From a phage: a DNA stretch of 64,000 nt. Each line of letters opens with the position of its first letter. The first letter of the stretch is position 1. The notes under the pieces were generated by a model. The model made no database searches and was not told where the DNA came from. It was given only the letters and a program-made list of their open reading frames with translations. Below, in pieces: positions 31,482-43,029 of this stretch. The position numbers were made by a program, and so were the translations under genes. The stretch is taken from sequence record PZ019084.1. One strand, written 5' to 3'.

Positions 31482-32062
31482 ATTCCAATTACGAAAAACT
31501 GTGGACGAGTAATACCACCAATGCAACATTTACTATTGCAGCAGTGTTGCACAGTTTCAATATGAATATCGTAAATTTTATCCATATCAGGAGATTTAAC
31601 AGGCTCATCGATTATATACAAGATTCGAGAAAGCGATAAACCTCTGAACTTGCTACCTCTATTACCAACAAAACTACGGACAGAATCGGTAAATAAGCGA
31701 AATCGAATATCATCGCTAGAATAACGAGAAAATTCTTTTTTAATGTGGCCCGCAGAAATTTTAGCGTAAGCTGAAGTATTAGAAAGAACAATAACTGTTC
31801 CACCGTCATACAGCCAATTAGCAGCAAAATTAGTCACAGCAGTTGATTTACCAGATTGGCGTCCACCATCTAGTCGAAGTGTACAATATTGTTTAAGCAA
31901 GTCTTCAAATGGTGGGATATAATCGTTTTTACAAATTTCTTCTACTCTAGCATCAGAATGGTGTGTAAAAGCATTCATCAGGGATAGATAAGGACCAGTT
32001 AAAAATGTTCTCATTTTATTCTCTCTAAATTTGGGCCATTCCATGGCGCATGAATTGTCCAT
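31475..32062 (-). CDS. Small P-loop NTPase
   Basis: Walker A GGRQSGKST and Walker B LYIIDEP; true start may be the MRTFLTG Met at 32014 (GAGAGAA RBS). Confidence 0.5.
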   Translation of the reverse strand: MDNSCAMEWPKFRENKMRTFLTGPYLSLMNAFTHHSDARVEEICKNDYIPPFEDLLKQYCTLRLDGGRQSGKSTAVTNFAANWLYDGGTVIVLSNTSAYAKISAGHIKKEFSRYSSDDIRFRLFTDSVRSFVGNRGSKFRGLSLSRILYIIDEPVKSPDMDKIYDIHIETVQHCCNSKCCIGGITRPQFFVIGMQ

Positions 32063-32167
32063 TTCTGTATTTACCCATTACCGCACTTGGGCTCGACCTT
32101 ATTACAGGTTGGCGGGAATCCCTCATAGAATCATGAGGTCCAGCTTGTTCCCATATTTCTTATTTGC

Positions 32168-32641
32168 TTATTTGAATGATTTGACGTACTGAATAGAGCC
32201 TTTGCTATTCACGAAAGCGATTTTACCATTTTTATTATACATGGTAGCAGTACGCTGATAACCATAAGTTTGCTTACCAGATTGATAACCAACTAATGCA
32301 AAATTATCTTCACCCATTTTATTCTGTTTAGCGCGGATGCGTTCATGACCGTGTGCCATAAGAACCTTAGCGTCGCCAGTTGCAATGGATCTACGAGTTT
32401 TTTCATCTTCAACTGTATTAACAAAATCGTCAAATGAATCAAATTTAGCATGGGATTTATTATACAGTTTTCCATCTACTGCATAATTATATCCTTGTAC
32501 ATCCATCTCAACTTCTGTACCGTCATCCAATACAGCAGTGATTTTTTGACCTTTTTTAAATTTCAAAAGATCAGTAAAAGATTCAGCAATAATTTGAGAA
32601 TTAATAGCTGCTTCAGTAATAAATTCTTGGTATGTTTTCAT
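32168..32641 (-). CDS. Internal protein with capsid targeting sequence (ipII locus)
   Basis: 157 aa; N-terminus MKTYQEFITEA is the T4 CTS pattern; located between ipIII and the position where denV would be. Confidence 0.6.
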   Translation of the reverse strand: MKTYQEFITEAAINSQIIAESFTDLLKFKKGQKITAVLDDGTEVEMDVQGYNYAVDGKLYNKSHAKFDSFDDFVNTVEDEKTRRSIATGDAKVLMAHGHERIRAKQNKMGEDNFALVGYQSGKQTYGYQRTATMYNKNGKIAFVNSKGSIQYVKSFK

Positions 32642-32747
32642 GTATATCCTTTAAATGTAAATAATTTTATTCTTTAAGTTTGGGACAATTCACACATGAA
32701 TTGTCCATTTCTGTATTTATCTATTACCGAGTTCGGACTTGGCTTTA

Positions 32748-33326
32748 TTAATTACCACGGGCTGCATTAGCAACGGCGTAAGCATACTGAACATTAGCGT
32801 CCTTAAACGTACCTTTAGAGGTATCTATTTCTGCCTTAAAGCCGCCTTTAGCCATAACATCAGCAAATTCTTTACGGAAGGCCATTGCATCAAGACCTTT
32901 CCATGATGATTTATGCTTGGCGAATTCAAGACCAGCGTAGTTGACAGCCTTAGCTAATTTATTATCAATAACCCATTTACCAGCTTTAGGCACAAACACC
33001 GGGCCTTTCTGTTTAGAGAATAGTTTTAAATTCCAGCGACGAAGGTCACCGTCAGCTTTAACAAAAGCTGCATCCAAGTTACTAGCAACAACATCTTGAA
33101 TATGGCCAAATTTAAGCCCATCAACTTCAATATTTAGATCAGTACGCCAGCGAAGTCCTTCCCAAGCGAAAGCTTTAAAGTCGGAAGCTTTTGTGGCTAG
33201 ATATCGTTCAAGTGGAGCAGTTTTAGGGTCAAAGCCGTTTCCACCACGATAGTTCCACTCGTCCTTATTAATGCCTTTGGCCTTTTCCGCAGAAGCTTCA
33301 GCGATAAATTCTTTATACGTTTTCAT
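32748..33326 (-). CDS. ipIII: Internal protein III
   Basis: 192 aa; N-terminal CTS MKTYKEFIAEA; position next to e and size match T4 IPIII. Confidence 0.75.
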   Translation of the reverse strand: MKTYKEFIAEASAEKAKGINKDEWNYRGGNGFDPKTAPLERYLATKASDFKAFAWEGLRWRTDLNIEVDGLKFGHIQDVVASNLDAAFVKADGDLRRWNLKLFSKQKGPVFVPKAGKWVIDNKLAKAVNYAGLEFAKHKSSWKGLDAMAFRKEFADVMAKGGFKAEIDTSKGTFKDANVQYAYAVANAARGN

Positions 33327-36854: not shown

Positions 36855-37031
36855 TTATACTCCAAAGAGTTTATAAACTATTTCGACATCGCCTTTTGCT
36901 GCTTTATAACCTTCAGCCCAGGATACAACCGAATTTTTATCTGAAGATTCAAACTCTGGCATTGGGCTTTCACCAATATTCACGCAGTATGTTTCTTCAT
37001 TCTCGTCAAACCAAATAATTAAAGTAGTCAT
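36855..37031 (-). CDS. Small protein (58 aa), not in ORF track
   Basis: Minus-strand ATG at 37031 preceded by GGAGAAATAA RBS; translates MTTLIIWFDENEETYCVNIGESPMPEF... Confidence 0.3.
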   Translation of the reverse strand: MTTLIIWFDENEETYCVNIGESPMPEFESSDKNSVVSWAEGYKAAKGDVEIVYKLFGV

Positions 37032-37105: not shown

Positions 37106-37438
37106 TTAATTTTTCCAACTTAACAACTTGTAGTGTCCTTCATTCATACGTGGTTTATCCCAAGAAATACTAATATATGATTCACTGTCAATAGAAGTCG
37201 CCGGGTTTTTCTCTACCGTAAGACCTTCACTTTCCAGCCATTCAATAGTATTTGCGCATAAATCGGAAGAACACCTCATCGGAAACCGGCAAGATTTTTC
37301 ACCTTTAGATGCAGCGTTATACATCTTTTCTAAAATACGCTTTTGCACGTTTTTAAAAATAGTTTCAGCGGATTCTTCAGATTTTTTATTCAGTTCAATA
37401 TAAAGACTCATAACATTCTTCTCATTAATAGGGCTCAT
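37106..37438 (-). CDS. Hypothetical protein
   Basis: 110 aa ORF. Confidence 0.4.
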   Translation of the reverse strand: MSPINEKNVMSLYIELNKKSEESAETIFKNVQKRILEKMYNAASKGEKSCRFPMRCSSDLCANTIEWLESEGLTVEKNPATSIDSESYISISWDKPRMNEGHYKLLSWKN

Positions 37439-37466: not shown

Positions 37467-37742
37467 TTATTTCATATTATTGAAATATTCTTCTGCGATT
37501 TCGTCGTTATCATGGTAAACTTTAGAAGACAGTTTAACATAACCTTCAGCAGTGAACATGTTAATCACAACCTTTACAGTATACCACTGACCGTCTTCAT
37601 TACCCATTACTGCGTAAGTTTCAAACATCGGATGGTCAGGACCGATAACTTTAATATCATTCACTGTACGACCGAAATCTTCTGAAACGCATTTCATAAA
37701 GAAGTTGAACAGTTCGCCGTAATTATCCATTTTATTCTCCAA
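37467..37742 (-). CDS. Hypothetical protein
   Basis: 91 aa ORF downstream of an early promoter. Confidence 0.4.
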   Translation of the reverse strand: MENKMDNYGELFNFFMKCVSEDFGRTVNDIKVIGPDHPMFETYAVMGNEDGQWYTVKVVINMFTAEGYVKLSSKVYHDNDEIAEEYFNNMK

Positions 37743-37773
37743 GTTGTTTTCAGTATCAGTAGTTGATAGTTGT

Positions 37774-37804
37774 ATAGTACCATGGAAGAACAGAGATGTA
37801 AACC
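37774..37804 (-). promoter_or_regulatory. T4-type early promoter
   Basis: Plus strand tatagtacca...gatgtaaaccgttttgtgaaaaaa. Confidence 0.6.
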
Positions 37805-37941
37805 GTTTTGTGAAAAAATTTTAAAAATTTTTAGGGAATTCTAGGGCAGGGAGGGGCAATTAAAAGATAGGATAATATATTATAAAGGGTAGAAACTAAA
37901 TGATGCCTAGAGAGGTCCAGAAAGGCCTAGATGCCAAAAAG

Positions 37942-37960
37942 CCCTATCATTTAGATAGGG
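37942..37960 (-). terminator. Hairpin plus U-run (intrinsic terminator)
   Basis: Minus strand ccctatctaaatgatagggcTTTTTgg just downstream of ORF 37969-38532. Confidence 0.55.
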
Positions 37961-37968
37961 ATTTAAAA

Positions 37969-38532
37969 TTATTTATCTAGTTTAGTTATTATAGCTTCTG
38001 CGGCAGCTTTTAGCTTAGATGCGGTGTTAATACGATTTTTAATTTCAGTATACGCATCGCCAAGAACATCAAGGCTATCAGAATAAACACTTACACTATT
38101 GCGTTCGCTATTTGAAATAGAACCTTTAGTTTTACGATCAAAATCGGTGTACACGTCTTGAAGATCACGGGCTGCCTTCTTTGCATCATCCAATGCGTCA
38201 AGAGCTTTATTCAAAGCATTAACGTATTTTTTAGTGTCAAACATATTCTTAGAAATTTTAACAGGTGCGCGTTCAGGAGTAGCTAATGCAGATTTAGGAA
38301 CCTGAGCGCCAGATGCCAATTTCTTAGAAATTTTGAAAAACGCTTTATTGAATTTATTTTCTTGACTCATCGTAAAAGAACTATTATCGATGTTGTACAT
38401 TTCAATAGCTTTAGCTTTCCACTTAAGAAAATTGCCGCGGTCTTTTGGGTCCAAGTGGAAGAATACTTTAGTAAGATCTGCTTCAGATGGTAATTTTGCT
38501 GCTTCGGTTAAAAATTCGGCATAGGTTTTCAT
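37969..38532 (-). CDS. Candidate capsid-targeted internal protein (CTS-like N-terminus)
   Basis: 187 aa; N-terminus MKTYAEFLTEAAK resembles the CTS of ipII/ipIII; lysine/alanine-rich. Confidence 0.5.
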   Translation of the reverse strand: MKTYAEFLTEAAKLPSEADLTKVFFHLDPKDRGNFLKWKAKAIEMYNIDNSSFTMSQENKFNKAFFKISKKLASGAQVPKSALATPERAPVKISKNMFDTKKYVNALNKALDALDDAKKAARDLQDVYTDFDRKTKGSISNSERNSVSVYSDSLDVLGDAYTEIKNRINTASKLKAAAEAIITKLDK

Positions 38533-38627
38533 TTAAAATCCTTGAAATAATTTATCAGTTGGTTATTAATTATTTATTACTTTGTTATTATCCGTAACAG
38601 CATTCTCTATGTGATTCAAACTAAAAA

Positions 38628-38650
38628 GCCCCAACCTTTCGGTCGGGGCT
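38628..38650 (-). terminator. Hairpin plus U-run (intrinsic terminator)
   Basis: Minus strand agccccgaccgaaaggttggggcTTTTTag. Confidence 0.6.
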
Positions 38651-38657
38651 AAGAATG

Positions 38658-39131
38658 TTATTTGATTTGTTTAGCAGACCAAATGCGGTCTTTAATAATT
38701 TTTTGGATGTCTTCAACATACTCAAGAGAGTGAACATGTGGATTATCTTTGAAACTATAAGCACGGGCTAACTTTTGGCCTTCGGTTTTGATTACTAAAA
38801 GCTCTTTAAGGATAGCTTCATATTTAGCGATAATTCCTTTAACGATATTTTTTTCTTGTGCAGCTTTAGGATCTGCTTTAGGAGCAGGTTTACCCGAAGC
38901 CTTTGCAAAAGCAGCACCAGTAGCAACTAAACTTTTCCAGGCCATACTAACCGCATTTCCCGTAAATCCTTCTGCTTTCATGTCGCGAGCAAATTGGAAT
39001 CGTGATTCGTCAGAAGCATCTTTATAGGAATATTTACCCGCTGCAATGGCTGCTTTTGCGACAGCTTGAATTTCGGTGCTAGATGCTTCATTTAACACCG
39101 CTTCATTTAAAAATTGAGCATATGATTTCAT
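38658..39131 (-). CDS. Candidate capsid-targeted internal protein (CTS-like N-terminus)
   Basis: 157 aa; N-terminus MKSYAQFLNEAVLNEA resembles the CTS; late promoter TATAAATA 40 nt upstream. Confidence 0.5.
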   Translation of the reverse strand: MKSYAQFLNEAVLNEASSTEIQAVAKAAIAAGKYSYKDASDESRFQFARDMKAEGFTGNAVSMAWKSLVATGAAFAKASGKPAPKADPKAAQEKNIVKGIIAKYEAILKELLVIKTEGQKLARAYSFKDNPHVHSLEYVEDIQKIIKDRIWSAKQIK

Positions 39132-39171: not shown

Positions 39172-39179
39172 TATTTATA
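39172..39179 (-). promoter_or_regulatory. Late promoter (TATAAATA)
   Basis: Plus strand tatttata = TATAAATA on coding strand, between terminator hairpin and ORF 38658-39131. Confidence 0.6.
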
Positions 39180-39186
39180 CTAAAAA

Positions 39187-39208
39187 GCCCCGACCTTTCG
39201 GTCGGGGC
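39187..39208 (-). terminator. Hairpin plus U-run (intrinsic terminator)
   Basis: Minus strand gccccgaccgaaaggtcggggcTTTTTa, downstream of the stable-RNA/tRNA region. Confidence 0.6.
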
Positions 39209-39258
39209 TAAGCCTTGCGGCAACCTTGTCGGGGTTCCACCTGCTAAGGCAAGTGTTT

Positions 39259-39420
39259 GTACGAAACGCCGGGATTCGAACCCGGTTATTAAGCAGTTGA
39301 CGCTACTCAATATTTTTAAAAGGCCATATCTCGACCATATCCGAACGTTCCGTCAAAAACGCTACTCGGCTTACGGCAAAGATATTTCCTCGAATCGATA
39401 ATTCTGTGCGCCGTTTCTGC
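39259..39420 (-). ncRNA. Candidate stable RNA with tRNA-like 3-prime domain (T4 species 1/2-like)
   Basis: Minus strand contains ACCGGGTTCGAATCCCGG (T-arm-like) followed by CGTTTCG pairing with AGAAACG about 150 nt upstream; too long for a tRNA, no ORF. Confidence 0.35.
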
Positions 39421-39520: not shown

Positions 39521-39871
39521 TTAATATTCTTTTAAAGCATTAATCTGTTCACGACGTTTACGCCATAAATCAATTACTTCATACGCAGATTCAGCATTTC
39601 GAATTGGACGGCATTTATATAAAGACTTATGATTTTGATATTGTGTAGATAACGGAATTTTATCTAAAAGGTCTTTACGTTCAAAGTATTCGTAACCATC
39701 TAAGCCAAATGAACGATTTTTGAGAAATTGCCAATGACCAAATTCGTTTTGAATATAAATATAATCCGCGTGTTGATAAAGTAAATTAATTTCACGAAAT
39801 GAGATATGTTTTTCATATTCATTGAAGTAAAATGTTAAATCATGAACTACTAAATAAACATTACCTTTCAT
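39521..39871 (-). CDS. Hypothetical protein embedded in the tRNA/stable-RNA region
   Basis: 116 aa ORF between tRNA-Arg and the stable-RNA region; no recognisable motif. Confidence 0.4.
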   Translation of the reverse strand: MKGNVYLVVHDLTFYFNEYEKHISFREINLLYQHADYIYIQNEFGHWQFLKNRSFGLDGYEYFERKDLLDKIPLSTQYQNHKSLYKCRPIRNAESAYEVIDLWRKRREQINALKEY

Positions 39872-39889: not shown

Positions 39890-39965
39890 TGGTCGAGGCA
39901 GTAGGGATCGAACCTACGACCTAGGACTTAGAAGGTCCTTGCTCTTCCTTCTGAGCTATGCCCCG
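39890..39965 (-). tRNA. tRNA-Arg (anticodon TCT)
   Basis: Minus strand folds as cloverleaf: acceptor CGGGGCA/TGCCTCG, anticodon loop CTTCTAA, T-arm GGTTCGATCC, CCA encoded. Confidence 0.8.
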
Positions 39966-40046
39966 TAATTGGGGTGACCGATGGGAGTCGAACCCATGAC
40001 TACGAGAATCACAATCTCGAGTTCTACCAACTGAACTACGGCCACA
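39966..40046 (-). tRNA. tRNA-His (anticodon GTG)
   Basis: Acceptor GTGGCCG/CGGTCAC, D-arm GTTCAGTTGGTAGAAC, anticodon loop TTGTGAT, T-arm GGGTTCGACTCCC, CCA encoded; no encoded G-1. The tRNA itself is approximately 39971-40046. Confidence 0.6.
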
Positions 40047-40159
40047 TTAATACCTACTCCAACAATCAAGATGTCTTCACACGAAATTAAGAGAAGAGTG
40101 ATCAGTTCAACCCCTATAATCGCGTCAAGTAGATATTAATGTGACAGTTGTCACAAATT

Positions 40160-40234
40160 TGGCGGACGTGATAGGATTCGAACCTATAACCAATCGCTTA
40201 ACAGGCGATCGCTCTGCCATTGAGCTACACATCC
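40160..40234 (-). tRNA. tRNA-Asn (anticodon GTT)
   Basis: Acceptor GGATGTG/CACGTCC, anticodon stem ATCGC/GCGAT with loop CTGTTAA, T-arm AGGTTCGAATCCT, CCA encoded. Confidence 0.7.
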
Positions 40235-40238
40235 AAAT

Positions 40239-40325
40239 TGGTGGGGAGTGATGGAGTCGAACCACCCGAGTCGCAATGACAATGGATTTACAGTCCACAC
40301 CGCTACCTCTACGGGATAACTCCCC
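40239..40325 (-). tRNA. tRNA-Tyr (anticodon GTA), long variable arm
   Basis: Acceptor GGGGAGT/ACTCCCC, anticodon loop CTGTAAA, long variable arm, T-arm GGTGGTTCGACTCCATC, CCA encoded. Confidence 0.65.
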
Positions 40326-40338
40326 TTAATTCTTAATT

Positions 40339-40413
40339 TGGTGGCCCTGGGTGGAATTGAACCACCATCTGGCGATTATGAGTCGCTTGCTTGAACCTTC
40401 CAGCTACAGGGCC
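40339..40413 (-). tRNA. tRNA with CAT anticodon (Ile, as in T4, or Met)
   Basis: Acceptor GGCCCTG/CAGGGCC, anticodon loop CTCATAA, T-arm GGTGGTTCAATTCCACC, CCA encoded; position matches T4 tRNA-Ile. Confidence 0.65.
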
Positions 40414-40414
40414 T

Positions 40415-40490
40415 TGGTGCTGATTGACGGAATCGAACCGCCGACCTTCTCATTACAAGTGAGTTGCTCTACCTACTGAGCTAAATCAGC
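40415..40490 (-). tRNA. tRNA-Thr (anticodon TGT)
   Basis: Acceptor GCTGATT/AATCAGC, D-arm GCTCAGTAGGTAGAGC, anticodon loop CTTGTAA, T-arm GGCGGTTCGATTCCGTC, CCA encoded. Confidence 0.8.
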
Positions 40491-40495
40491 AAAAC

Positions 40496-40585
40496 TGGCG
40501 GAGGCGATAGGATTTGAACCTATGAGTCGCCGGAGCGACTGCCGGTTTTCAAGACCGGTGCATTAAACCACTCTGCCACGCCTCC
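40496..40585 (-). tRNA. tRNA-Ser (anticodon TGA), long variable arm
   Basis: Acceptor GGAGGCG/CGCCTCC, anticodon stem CCGGT/ACCGG with loop CTTGAAA, long variable arm, T-arm AGGTTCAAATCCT. Confidence 0.8.
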
Positions 40586-40587
40586 AG

Positions 40588-40661
40588 TCTCCATACAAGG
40601 ATTTGAACCTTGGACCTCCTGATCCCAAATCAGGCGCTCTACCAAACTGAGCTACACGGAG
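40588..40661 (-). tRNA. tRNA-Pro (anticodon TGG), CCA not encoded
   Basis: Acceptor CTCCGTG/TATGGAG, anticodon stem CCTGA/TCAGG with loop TTTGGGA, T-arm AAGGTTCAAATCCTT. Confidence 0.75.
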
Positions 40662-40671
40662 TAAATTAAAT

Positions 40672-40745
<74 letters not shown>

Positions 40746-40750
40746 AAATT

Positions 40751-40837
40751 TGGTGCGAGAAGTGGGACTCGAACCCACAAGGAAATCATTCCGCAGCATT
40801 TTAAGTGCTGTGCCTTTACCAATTTGACCATTCTCGC
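40751..40837 (-). tRNA. tRNA-Leu (anticodon TAA), long variable arm
   Basis: Acceptor GCGAGAA/TTCTCGC, anticodon loop CTTAAAA, long variable arm, T-arm GGGTTCGAGTCCC, CCA encoded. Confidence 0.8.
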
Positions 40838-40838
40838 G

Positions 40839-40911
40839 CTGGGAATAAAGGACTTGAACCTTTGCATCCTGGAATCAAAATCCAGTGCCTTACCAACTTG
40901 GCTAATTCCCA
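40839..40911 (-). tRNA. tRNA-Gln (anticodon TTG), CCA not encoded
   Basis: Acceptor TGGGAAT/ATTCCCA, anticodon stem CTGGA/TCCAG with loop TTTTGAT, T-arm AAGGTTCAAGTCCTT. Confidence 0.75.
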
Positions 40912-41896: not shown

Positions 41897-41922
41897 TTTA
41901 TTCTCCTCGGTAGTTGATAGGG

Positions 41923-41954
41923 TAATAGTATCACAACTAAAACCCTATGTAAAC
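41923..41954 (-). promoter_or_regulatory. T4-type early promoter with flanking inverted repeat
   Basis: Plus strand atagggtaatagtatcacaactaaaaccctatgtaaac: -10 complement inside inverted repeat ataggg/ccctat, then gtaaac. Confidence 0.55.
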
Positions 41955-41972
41955 AACTTTGTGAAATATTTA

Positions 41973-42260
41973 TTACAAAAGATTTTTAGCAATAATCTTG
42001 AGATATGCCGCAGAAATGTGTTTAGCTTTAAACAACGCAGTTTCTTCAGCAGGAGAGATAATGATTGTAGCACCATCCTTTTTAGCAGACCACCCATCAC
42101 CTAGGTAAACAGTACCTTTGATTTCTTCGCCATCAACCAAGCTAATCATTGGTTTACCTTCTCGTCCTTTATTTGCTTTAATAACTTCAGAAGTAAGAGT
42201 AGCTTCAGTAATAGTAGAAACCGGGGTAGTTGTAGAAGTAAATTCTTTGAAAGTTTTCAT
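41973..42260 (-). CDS. Internal protein at the ipI locus (CTS-like N-terminus)
   Basis: 95 aa (same as T4 IPI precursor length); N-terminus MKTFKEFTSTTT; located just upstream of 57B as ipI is in T4. Confidence 0.5.
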   Translation of the reverse strand: MKTFKEFTSTTTPVSTITEATLTSEVIKANKGREGKPMISLVDGEEIKGTVYLGDGWSAKKDGATIIISPAEETALFKAKHISAAYLKIIAKNLL

Positions 42261-42288
42261 TTTATTTTCCTAATTAATTTTGATGAGA

Positions 42289-42320
42289 TAATAGTATCAC
42301 TACCTCATCAGCATGTAAAC
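42289..42320 (-). promoter_or_regulatory. T4-type early promoter with flanking inverted repeat
   Basis: Plus strand gatgagataatagtatcactacctcatcagcatgtaaac: -10 complement within gatgag/ctcatc repeat, then gtaaac. Confidence 0.55.
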
Positions 42321-42332
42321 AACTTTGTGAAA

Positions 42333-43029
<697 letters not shown>

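Follow-up and report, generated by a model that had tools for sequence, protein, structure and literature searches.

Two genes after rnaC in a T4-like phage as candidate injected internal head proteins

Internal proteins (IPs) of T-even phages reportedly inhibit type IV restriction enzymes of the GmrSD type, as Bair and colleagues are said to have found in 2007. Conserved flanks at the two IP loci were reportedly described in 1994 by Repoila and colleagues, to whose series the names Ip4 and Ip5 are said to belong.

In T4, the first 10 residues, which form the capsid targeting sequence (CTS), are alone enough to package foreign proteins, and amber-suppressor work on IPIII assigned targeting mainly to residues 4 and 7 and processing to residues 8 and 10 (Mullaney & Black 1996, summarised in PMC9026906). 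Ip1, Ip2 and Ip3 act as inhibitors of three different GmrSD type IV restriction enzymes, one each (Silas et al. 2025, PMC12373910), and T-even relatives have long been known to carry extra CTS-tagged proteins (PMC12373910, PMC3012670, PMC9026906).

Here we analyse two genes, ORF1 and ORF2, in a 64,000-nt stretch of phage DNA (record PZ019084.1), which we call the window. Their products share with IPI, IPII, IPIII, Ip4 and Ip5 the same CTS residues, an [L/I]xE site for the prohead protease gp21, and a small, basic, lysine-rich make-up; like those proteins, they are dispensable, variable among close relatives and flanked by repeats. By contrast, their mature sequences are unrelated to those of IPI, Ip4 and IPIII, their genes lie at a different, third position directly after the rnaC terminator and before e.8, and their family, unlike most named Ips, keeps its position and can be followed over several genera. 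The explanation we favour, and hold to have somewhat better than an even chance, is that ORF1 and ORF2 encode two paralogous injected internal head proteins, most likely acting against host defence.

A cassette locus after rnaC

The window is a segment of a Tequatrovirus genome (nearest records pSs-1, ime09 and SA21RB, at 97-98% identity), and its source is a T4-like phage of the ime09/RB32 type. On the minus strand, the order of genes is tRNA cluster, 116-aa ORF, rnaC-like stable RNA with its terminator, ORF2, ORF1 and e.8. The relevant features are as follows.

39890-40911, minus strand: tRNA cluster, 11 tRNAs
39182-39209, minus strand: terminator hairpin of the rnaC-like RNA, upstream copy of the direct repeat of the ORF2 cassette (AGCCCCGACCGAAAGGTCGGGGCTTTTT)
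39172-39179, minus strand: late-promoter octamer TATAAATA, exact match to T4, 40 nt before the ORF2 ATG
38658-39131, minus strand: ORF2, 157 aa, MKSYAQFLNEA...
39102-39131, minus strand: ORF2 CTS, codons 1-10, MKSYAQFLNE, with Y4, F7, L8 and E10
38623-38650, minus strand: terminator after ORF2, downstream copy of the ORF2-cassette repeat
38571-38578, minus strand: AATAAATA, 7/8 match to the late-promoter octamer, 38 nt before the ORF1 ATG
37969-38532, minus strand: ORF1, 187 aa, MKTYAEFLTEA...
38503-38532, minus strand: ORF1 CTS, codons 1-10, MKTYAEFLTE, with Y4, F7, L8 and E10
37942-37960, minus strand: terminator after ORF1 (CCCTATCTAAATGATAGGG followed by CTTTTT)
37467-37742, after ORF1 in minus-strand order: e.8
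41973-42260: IPI gene, at the ipI locus, away from ORF1 and ORF2
32748-33326, minus strand: IPIII gene, in the ipII/ipIII locus (32168-33326)
32168-32641, minus strand: Ip4 gene, 157 aa, named as in the RB14 and AR1 annotation

The initial annotation had given these coordinates for both ORFs and had set them apart from the ipI, ipII and ipIII loci. Both statements stand; the strand, which it left unstated, is minus for both. By tblastn, 165 phage records carry ORF1, with identity never below 85%, and 512 carry ORF2. Because of this spread over many records and of pairwise dN/dS values of 0.04-0.12 for both genes, we conclude that ORF1 and ORF2 are real genes under strong purifying selection.

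Alignment with T4 locates the insertion: homology stops exactly where the rnaC terminator ends and picks up again directly after the ORF1 terminator. The rnaC and ORF2 terminators are 28-nt copies of one sequence, and in the direct-repeat family to which they belong (D2) the upstream copy shares 93% identity with the one at 38614-38653. At a single junction, GCTTTTT|GGTATCT, four allelic states are found.

T4: locus empty
RB32: only ORF2; a '34 bp imperfect direct repeat' is noted in its annotation
RB14: only ORF1, which the record lists as hypothetical ORF136
This window: ORF2 followed by ORF1

Records that match the contiguous two-gene arrangement over 80% or more of the query number 128; many others have ORF2 alone, and neither gene is present in T4, RB6 or ACG-C40. 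Judged by these alignments, ORF1 and ORF2 are separate terminator-bounded cassettes inserted directly after the rnaC terminator, and the rnaC/e.8 site is a third IP cassette locus, apart from ipI and ipII/ipIII, which the initial annotation had missed. The arrangement recalls the PeSL cassettes (Arbiol et al. 2010, PMC2839356; Comeau et al. 2014, PMC4122927), which likewise place a single gene between repeated stem-loop regulatory elements, with insertions and deletions exactly there. A PeSL, however, combines an early promoter with a stem-loop, whereas the flanks of ORF1 and ORF2 consist of a terminator hairpin followed by a late-promoter octamer.

The other IP genes of the window are also flanked by repeats. 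The ipII position is occupied not by T4 IPII but by the 157-aa CTS protein called Ip4 in RB14 and AR1, whose gene is bounded by 56-nt direct repeats (82% identical, 32049-32104 and 32695-32750) and forms another cassette. The IPI gene is bounded by 54-nt direct repeats (80% identical, 41914-41967 and 42280-42333) that contain an early-promoter-like GTTTACA...TACTAT and are PeSL-like; a third copy (63% identical) lies upstream of e.8, at 37763-37816.

Several neighbouring features differ from T4. The tRNA cluster has 11 genes against 8 in T4, and the homing endonuclease gene segB is absent inside it. The tRNAs beyond the T4 list are those for His, Asn and Tyr and one with a CAU anticodon, which ARAGORN calls Met and which the RB14 annotation, at the same cluster position, calls tRNA-Ile. 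A 114-nt stretch between tRNA-His and tRNA-Asn (40046-40159) has no tRNA call. The 116-aa ORF (39521-39871, minus strand), a hypothetical protein also found in ACG-C40, AR1 and SH7, lies roughly where T4 has rnaD. The rnaC-like stable RNA (about 39190-39340, minus strand) is conserved with T4; Rfam, which holds no rnaC model, gave no family matching it. At the position of e.7 there are two ORFs that differ from T4 e.7 (37106-37438 and 36855-37031, both minus strand); the RB32 record notes that e.7 is replaced by a homologue of RB69ORF146c, which makes this a variable spot adjoining the cassette locus.

Predicted transcription, capsid targeting and processing

Hairpins with T-runs follow rnaC (39209-39186), ORF2 (38650-38627) and ORF1 (37960-37942), directly after the end of each ORF, as expected from the initial annotation, which had assigned each gene its own terminator. 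It had also assigned the second ORF an exact late promoter, and the octamer TATAAATA is indeed there, 40 nt before the ATG, beginning 2 nt past the T-run of the rnaC terminator. In this AT-rich window the octamer occurs 13 times against 10.7 expected and is not enriched, so the promoter call for ORF2 rests on its position and on its conservation in relatives. Of 13 family members, drawn from seven genera or lineages, 12 have NATAAATA 28-40 nt ahead of the ATG; in 7 of those 12 it is the exact TATAAATA, and in most members it comes directly after a terminator hairpin. The same succession of terminator and octamer precedes the homologues in RB32, VEc20, JS98, KP1, fGh-Ecl01 and fHe-Yen9-01. The sole member lacking NATAAATA, gp153 of fHe-Yen9-01, starts 10 nt after gp154 and is presumably co-transcribed with it.

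ORF1 has no exact late promoter. RB14 and CT01 carry GATAAATA at the position of its promoter, and we infer that this AATAAATA/GATAAATA site serves as a late promoter whose first base varies. We also considered a sigma-70 promoter for ORF1 and rejected it, since sigma-70-like sites in the region number 8 against 6.8 expected by chance. Motif, position and conservation together point to late transcription from a TATAAATA-type promoter after the preceding terminator.

At the N-terminus, both ORFs have the targeting residues, an aromatic residue at position 4 and Phe at position 7, and both have a predicted gp21 site, which calls for Leu or Ile at position 8, Glu at position 10 and a small residue next (L8-T-E10|A in ORF1, L8-N-E10|A in ORF2). 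We searched the six-frame translation of the window with a strict CTS pattern, M[KR][ST]Y.[EQD]F[LIV].E, and found four matches, all at the start methionine of long minus-strand ORFs: ORF1, ORF2, IPIII and Ip4. In 200 shuffled sequences the pattern was never found (0/200). The description of these N-termini in the initial annotation as close variants of the T4 CTS is thereby confirmed, with Y4, F7, L8 and E10 all kept. The CTS is also kept in distant relatives, the rest of whose sequence is only 16-28% identical:

JS98 orf135: MKTYNEFLNESVLNEA
Kosakonia phage 305 gp152: MLNFNEFITESVELVTEA
fGh-Ecl01 homologue: MLNFKEFITESSFNMITEA
fHe-Yen9-01 gp154: MLQYNEFLKESLISEA
fHe-Yen9-01 gp153: MLEYSEFLKELFCEA
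Klebsiella phage KP1_122: MKFKEFLAEA
Potts1 gp293, from Met31: MLKFKDILTES

Yersinia phage fHe-Yen9-01 also encodes a 52-aa protein, gp156 (L004 2200-2358, plus strand), with a near-perfect CTS, MKTYIEFINE, and a very lysine-rich body, which may be a miniature internal protein; the late-promoter motif was not found within 140 nt upstream of it.

These observations bear on whether ORF1 and ORF2 might instead be ordinary late cytoplasmic proteins that are never packaged and resemble the CTS by chance or through shared ancestry of their 5′ ends. Recombination among ip cassettes might transfer a 5′ end but not the function that goes with it. Yet chance resemblance sits poorly with the shuffled sequences, and four functional residues have been kept in homologues that have diverged almost everywhere else; moreover, in T4 such a leader suffices to package foreign proteins (PMC9026906). 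Kinship with known cytoplasmic T4 proteins, which the initial annotation had named as grounds for abandoning its reading, was looked for, and neither ORF is homologous to any named cytoplasmic T4 protein. We regard a purely cytoplasmic role as very improbable.

Packaging of both proteins as internal proteins is, in our judgement, quite likely, and the residues required in IPIII suggest how it would proceed. The 10-residue CTS would bind the scaffolding core and bring the protein into the prohead, where gp21 would cut after Glu10 or, in ORF2, possibly after Glu15, since a second candidate gp21 site, VLNE15|A, lies just past the CTS. The expected mature N-termini are AAKLPSEADLTK... for ORF1 and either AVLNEASSTEIQAVAK or ASSTEIQAVAK for ORF2. 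Mature ORF1 is predicted to have 177 aa, a mass of about 19.7 kDa and a pI of 9.54 (precursor 14.4% Lys), and mature ORF2 147 aa, 15.5-16 kDa and a pI of 9.50 (precursor 13.4% Lys). This basic, lysine-rich composition is closely similar to that of IPIII from the same window (pI 9.60). Proteins of this kind, of about 16-20 kDa, would stay with the packaged DNA and, by the precedent of the IPs, be injected with it.

Entry into the core is, however, all that a CTS guarantees, and the proteins could be core-targeted scaffold accessories that act in assembly only and are degraded by gp21, so that little or none is injected. ORF2 has an additional internal [LI]xE site, ILKE at residues 107-110, and several relatives share with it the second site just past the CTS. 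ORF1, on the other hand, has a single [LI]xE site, the one in its CTS; the scaffold proteins known to be fully degraded are core genes, whereas ORF1 and ORF2 are dispensable cassettes; and a disposable peptide would have no need of the long conserved helical domain that forms the C-terminus of both proteins. We judge such an assembly-only role improbable, though less so than a cytoplasmic one.

A virion proteome is available for SH7, which carries the ORF2 homologue gp129 (PMC5238451). It lists 13 proteins, without gp129 and without any internal protein; because no internal protein is listed at all, this proteome is too shallow to count against gp129. Packaging as internal proteins agrees with the sequence-level tests on CTS residues, composition, polymorphic cassettes and homology to cytoplasmic T4 proteins, and the late-promoter motif, kept at the same distance in relatives across genera, would fit it as well.

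A family across T4-like phages

Both ORFs match phrog_2280 (PHROGs v4) over their full length, ORF1 with an E-value of 6.3e-53 (residues 1-181) and ORF2 with 1.7e-60 (residues 1-157). The PHROG itself has neither function nor name; our analysis adds to it the CTS, the late-promoter motif, the conserved position and the domain structure. A direct BLASTP comparison of ORF1 with ORF2 aligns the CTS alone, whereas hhalign of their C-terminal domains gives a probability of 96% and an E-value of 3e-9. AlphaFold2 models, of moderate or low confidence (pLDDT 72 for ORF2 and 64 for ORF1), show a common layout of CTS helix, small helical N-domain, Pro/Ala/Lys linker and long helical hairpin. Behind the CTS of ORF2 come a small helical N-domain (spanning roughly residues 18-71), a Pro/Lys linker and the C-terminal helical hairpin; ORF1 has a helical N-domain and then a Pro/Lys-rich linker, and its C-terminal helical hairpin is a homologue of the one in ORF2. 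Since the two proteins match one PHROG, align in their C-terminal domains and are predicted to have a common architecture, we take them, from profile comparison and modelling, to be distant paralogues with a common C-terminal helical hairpin. This paralogy within one widespread family was missed in the initial annotation.

The two domains evolve at different rates, the N-domain (dN 0.20-0.26) changing faster than the C-domain (dN 0.05-0.07). An ORF1 homologue in Shigella phage CT01 (L015 901-1389, plus strand) has cleanly lost, in frame, the 25-residue Pro/Lys-rich linker; judged by this deletion, the linker seems to be dispensable and the domains on either side of it seem to work as separate modules.

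Six more genera or lineages of T4-like phages have relatives beside their tRNA cluster that begin with a CTS and are preceded by NATAAATA. In Dhakavirus, Kanagawavirus, Karamvirus, Marfavirus and Jiaodavirus (genera or lineages), a member is found immediately downstream of the tRNA genes; in JS98, its place is between the tRNAs and e.8; and in fHe-Yen9-01 (Tegunavirus), both types occur in tandem in the reverse order. The C-domain is kept in phages of Escherichia, Klebsiella, Enterobacter, Yersinia and Kosakonia.

Outside this family, searches found little. Pfam and NCBIfam gave nothing meaningful for either ORF, and library matches of ORF1 to cytochrome b562 and ALIX were sub-threshold noise. 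Profile searches of PDB sequences found no relative of either family among solved structures. With the ORF2 model, Foldseek returned no related fold from the PDB (best E-value 0.6) and only truncated self-copies from BFVD, a set of predicted viral structures. HMMER with ORF1 against 1.8 billion proteins returned only its own cluster, fragments and one distant 204-aa relative. The mature parts of ORF1 and ORF2 gave a best BLASTP E-value of 2.3 against IPI, Ip4 and IPIII of the window, a comparison confined to these three proteins; with leaders removed, the five CTS proteins of the window were mutually unrelated by BLASTP.

The family appears to be uncharacterised. Almost all of its records are annotated as hypothetical, including those of RB14 and AR1, whose annotators named Ip4 (and, in RB14, Ip5) and left the family gene hypothetical. 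Only one UniRef entry, for a Klebsiella phage homologue, reads 'Internal head protein'. In the searchable literature, queried by locus tag and accession, by the names of RB69 ORFs and of Ips, and through virion proteomes, no paper dealing with these genes turned up.

Possible roles of the candidate injected proteins

The initial annotation had read ORF1 and ORF2 as plausible injected anti-defence effectors. We tentatively propose, at somewhat less than even odds, that the two proteins do counter host defence: in the host, they would most likely neutralise a defence directed against the incoming DNA, a proposal made by analogy with Ip1-3. The presumed delivery route is that of these GmrSD inhibitors (CTS, head, injection with the DNA), and the phage group that carries ORF1 and ORF2 likewise has glucosyl-hmC DNA exposed to such enzymes. 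By contrast, the searches described above showed no sequence similarity of either ORF to IPI* or the other inhibitors, and no fold similarity of the ORF2 model to them. The faster-evolving N-domain may give specificity, with the conserved C-terminal hairpin providing a common function.

The same proteins could instead have a job intrinsic to the phage, such as neutralising the charge of the DNA, condensing it or assisting its ejection, without a specific defence target. They are basic and lysine-rich, and in T4 heads the lysines of internal proteins touch DNA phosphates (PMC3012670). Strong purifying selection acts on their C-domain, which is kept in phages infecting five host genera, and the family keeps a fixed genomic position adjoining the tRNA cluster. 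The low dN/dS and the retention of the C-domain across these hosts are unlike a typical arms-race effector, and they fit a phage-intrinsic, DNA-associated role equally well. Such a role cannot be essential, however, since T4, RB6 and ACG-C40 do without both genes, and presence or absence among near-identical phages resembles the behaviour of accessory host-range genes. Ip1-3, too, are basic, yet are specific inhibitors. That T4 dispenses with both genes favours an accessory, host-dependent role, and we consider the phage-intrinsic alternative unlikely, though weightier than a role in assembly only.

ORF1 and ORF2 are, by analogy, good candidates for injected counter-defence proteins, which would not constitute a new kind of system. 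In the 2025 work, all three T4 internal proteins turned out to be specific inhibitors of different GmrSD enzymes (PMC12373910), and for this reason every uncharacterised CTS-tagged protein is a candidate counter-defence factor or host-range determinant. New here are the third IP locus, the paralogy with a common C-domain and the conserved cassette of terminator and putative late promoter. With its four states, the locus offers a useful natural case of genes being shuffled at regulatory repeats.

The family occurs in hundreds of sequenced therapeutic and food-safety phages, nearly always as 'hypothetical', and naming it, with its processing sites and cassette boundaries, provides testable constructs and better phage annotation. 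A bolder reading, to which we give only a small share of our confidence, is that the phrog_2280 proteins may form an old, genus-spanning third class of injected head proteins beside the tRNA cluster, in which the fast N-domain would recognise some defence or factor of the host distinct from GmrSD and the C-terminal hairpin would give a common effector or DNA-binding function. If this is true, tandem paralogues such as ORF1 and ORF2 would widen the range of defences or hosts that the phage can overcome.
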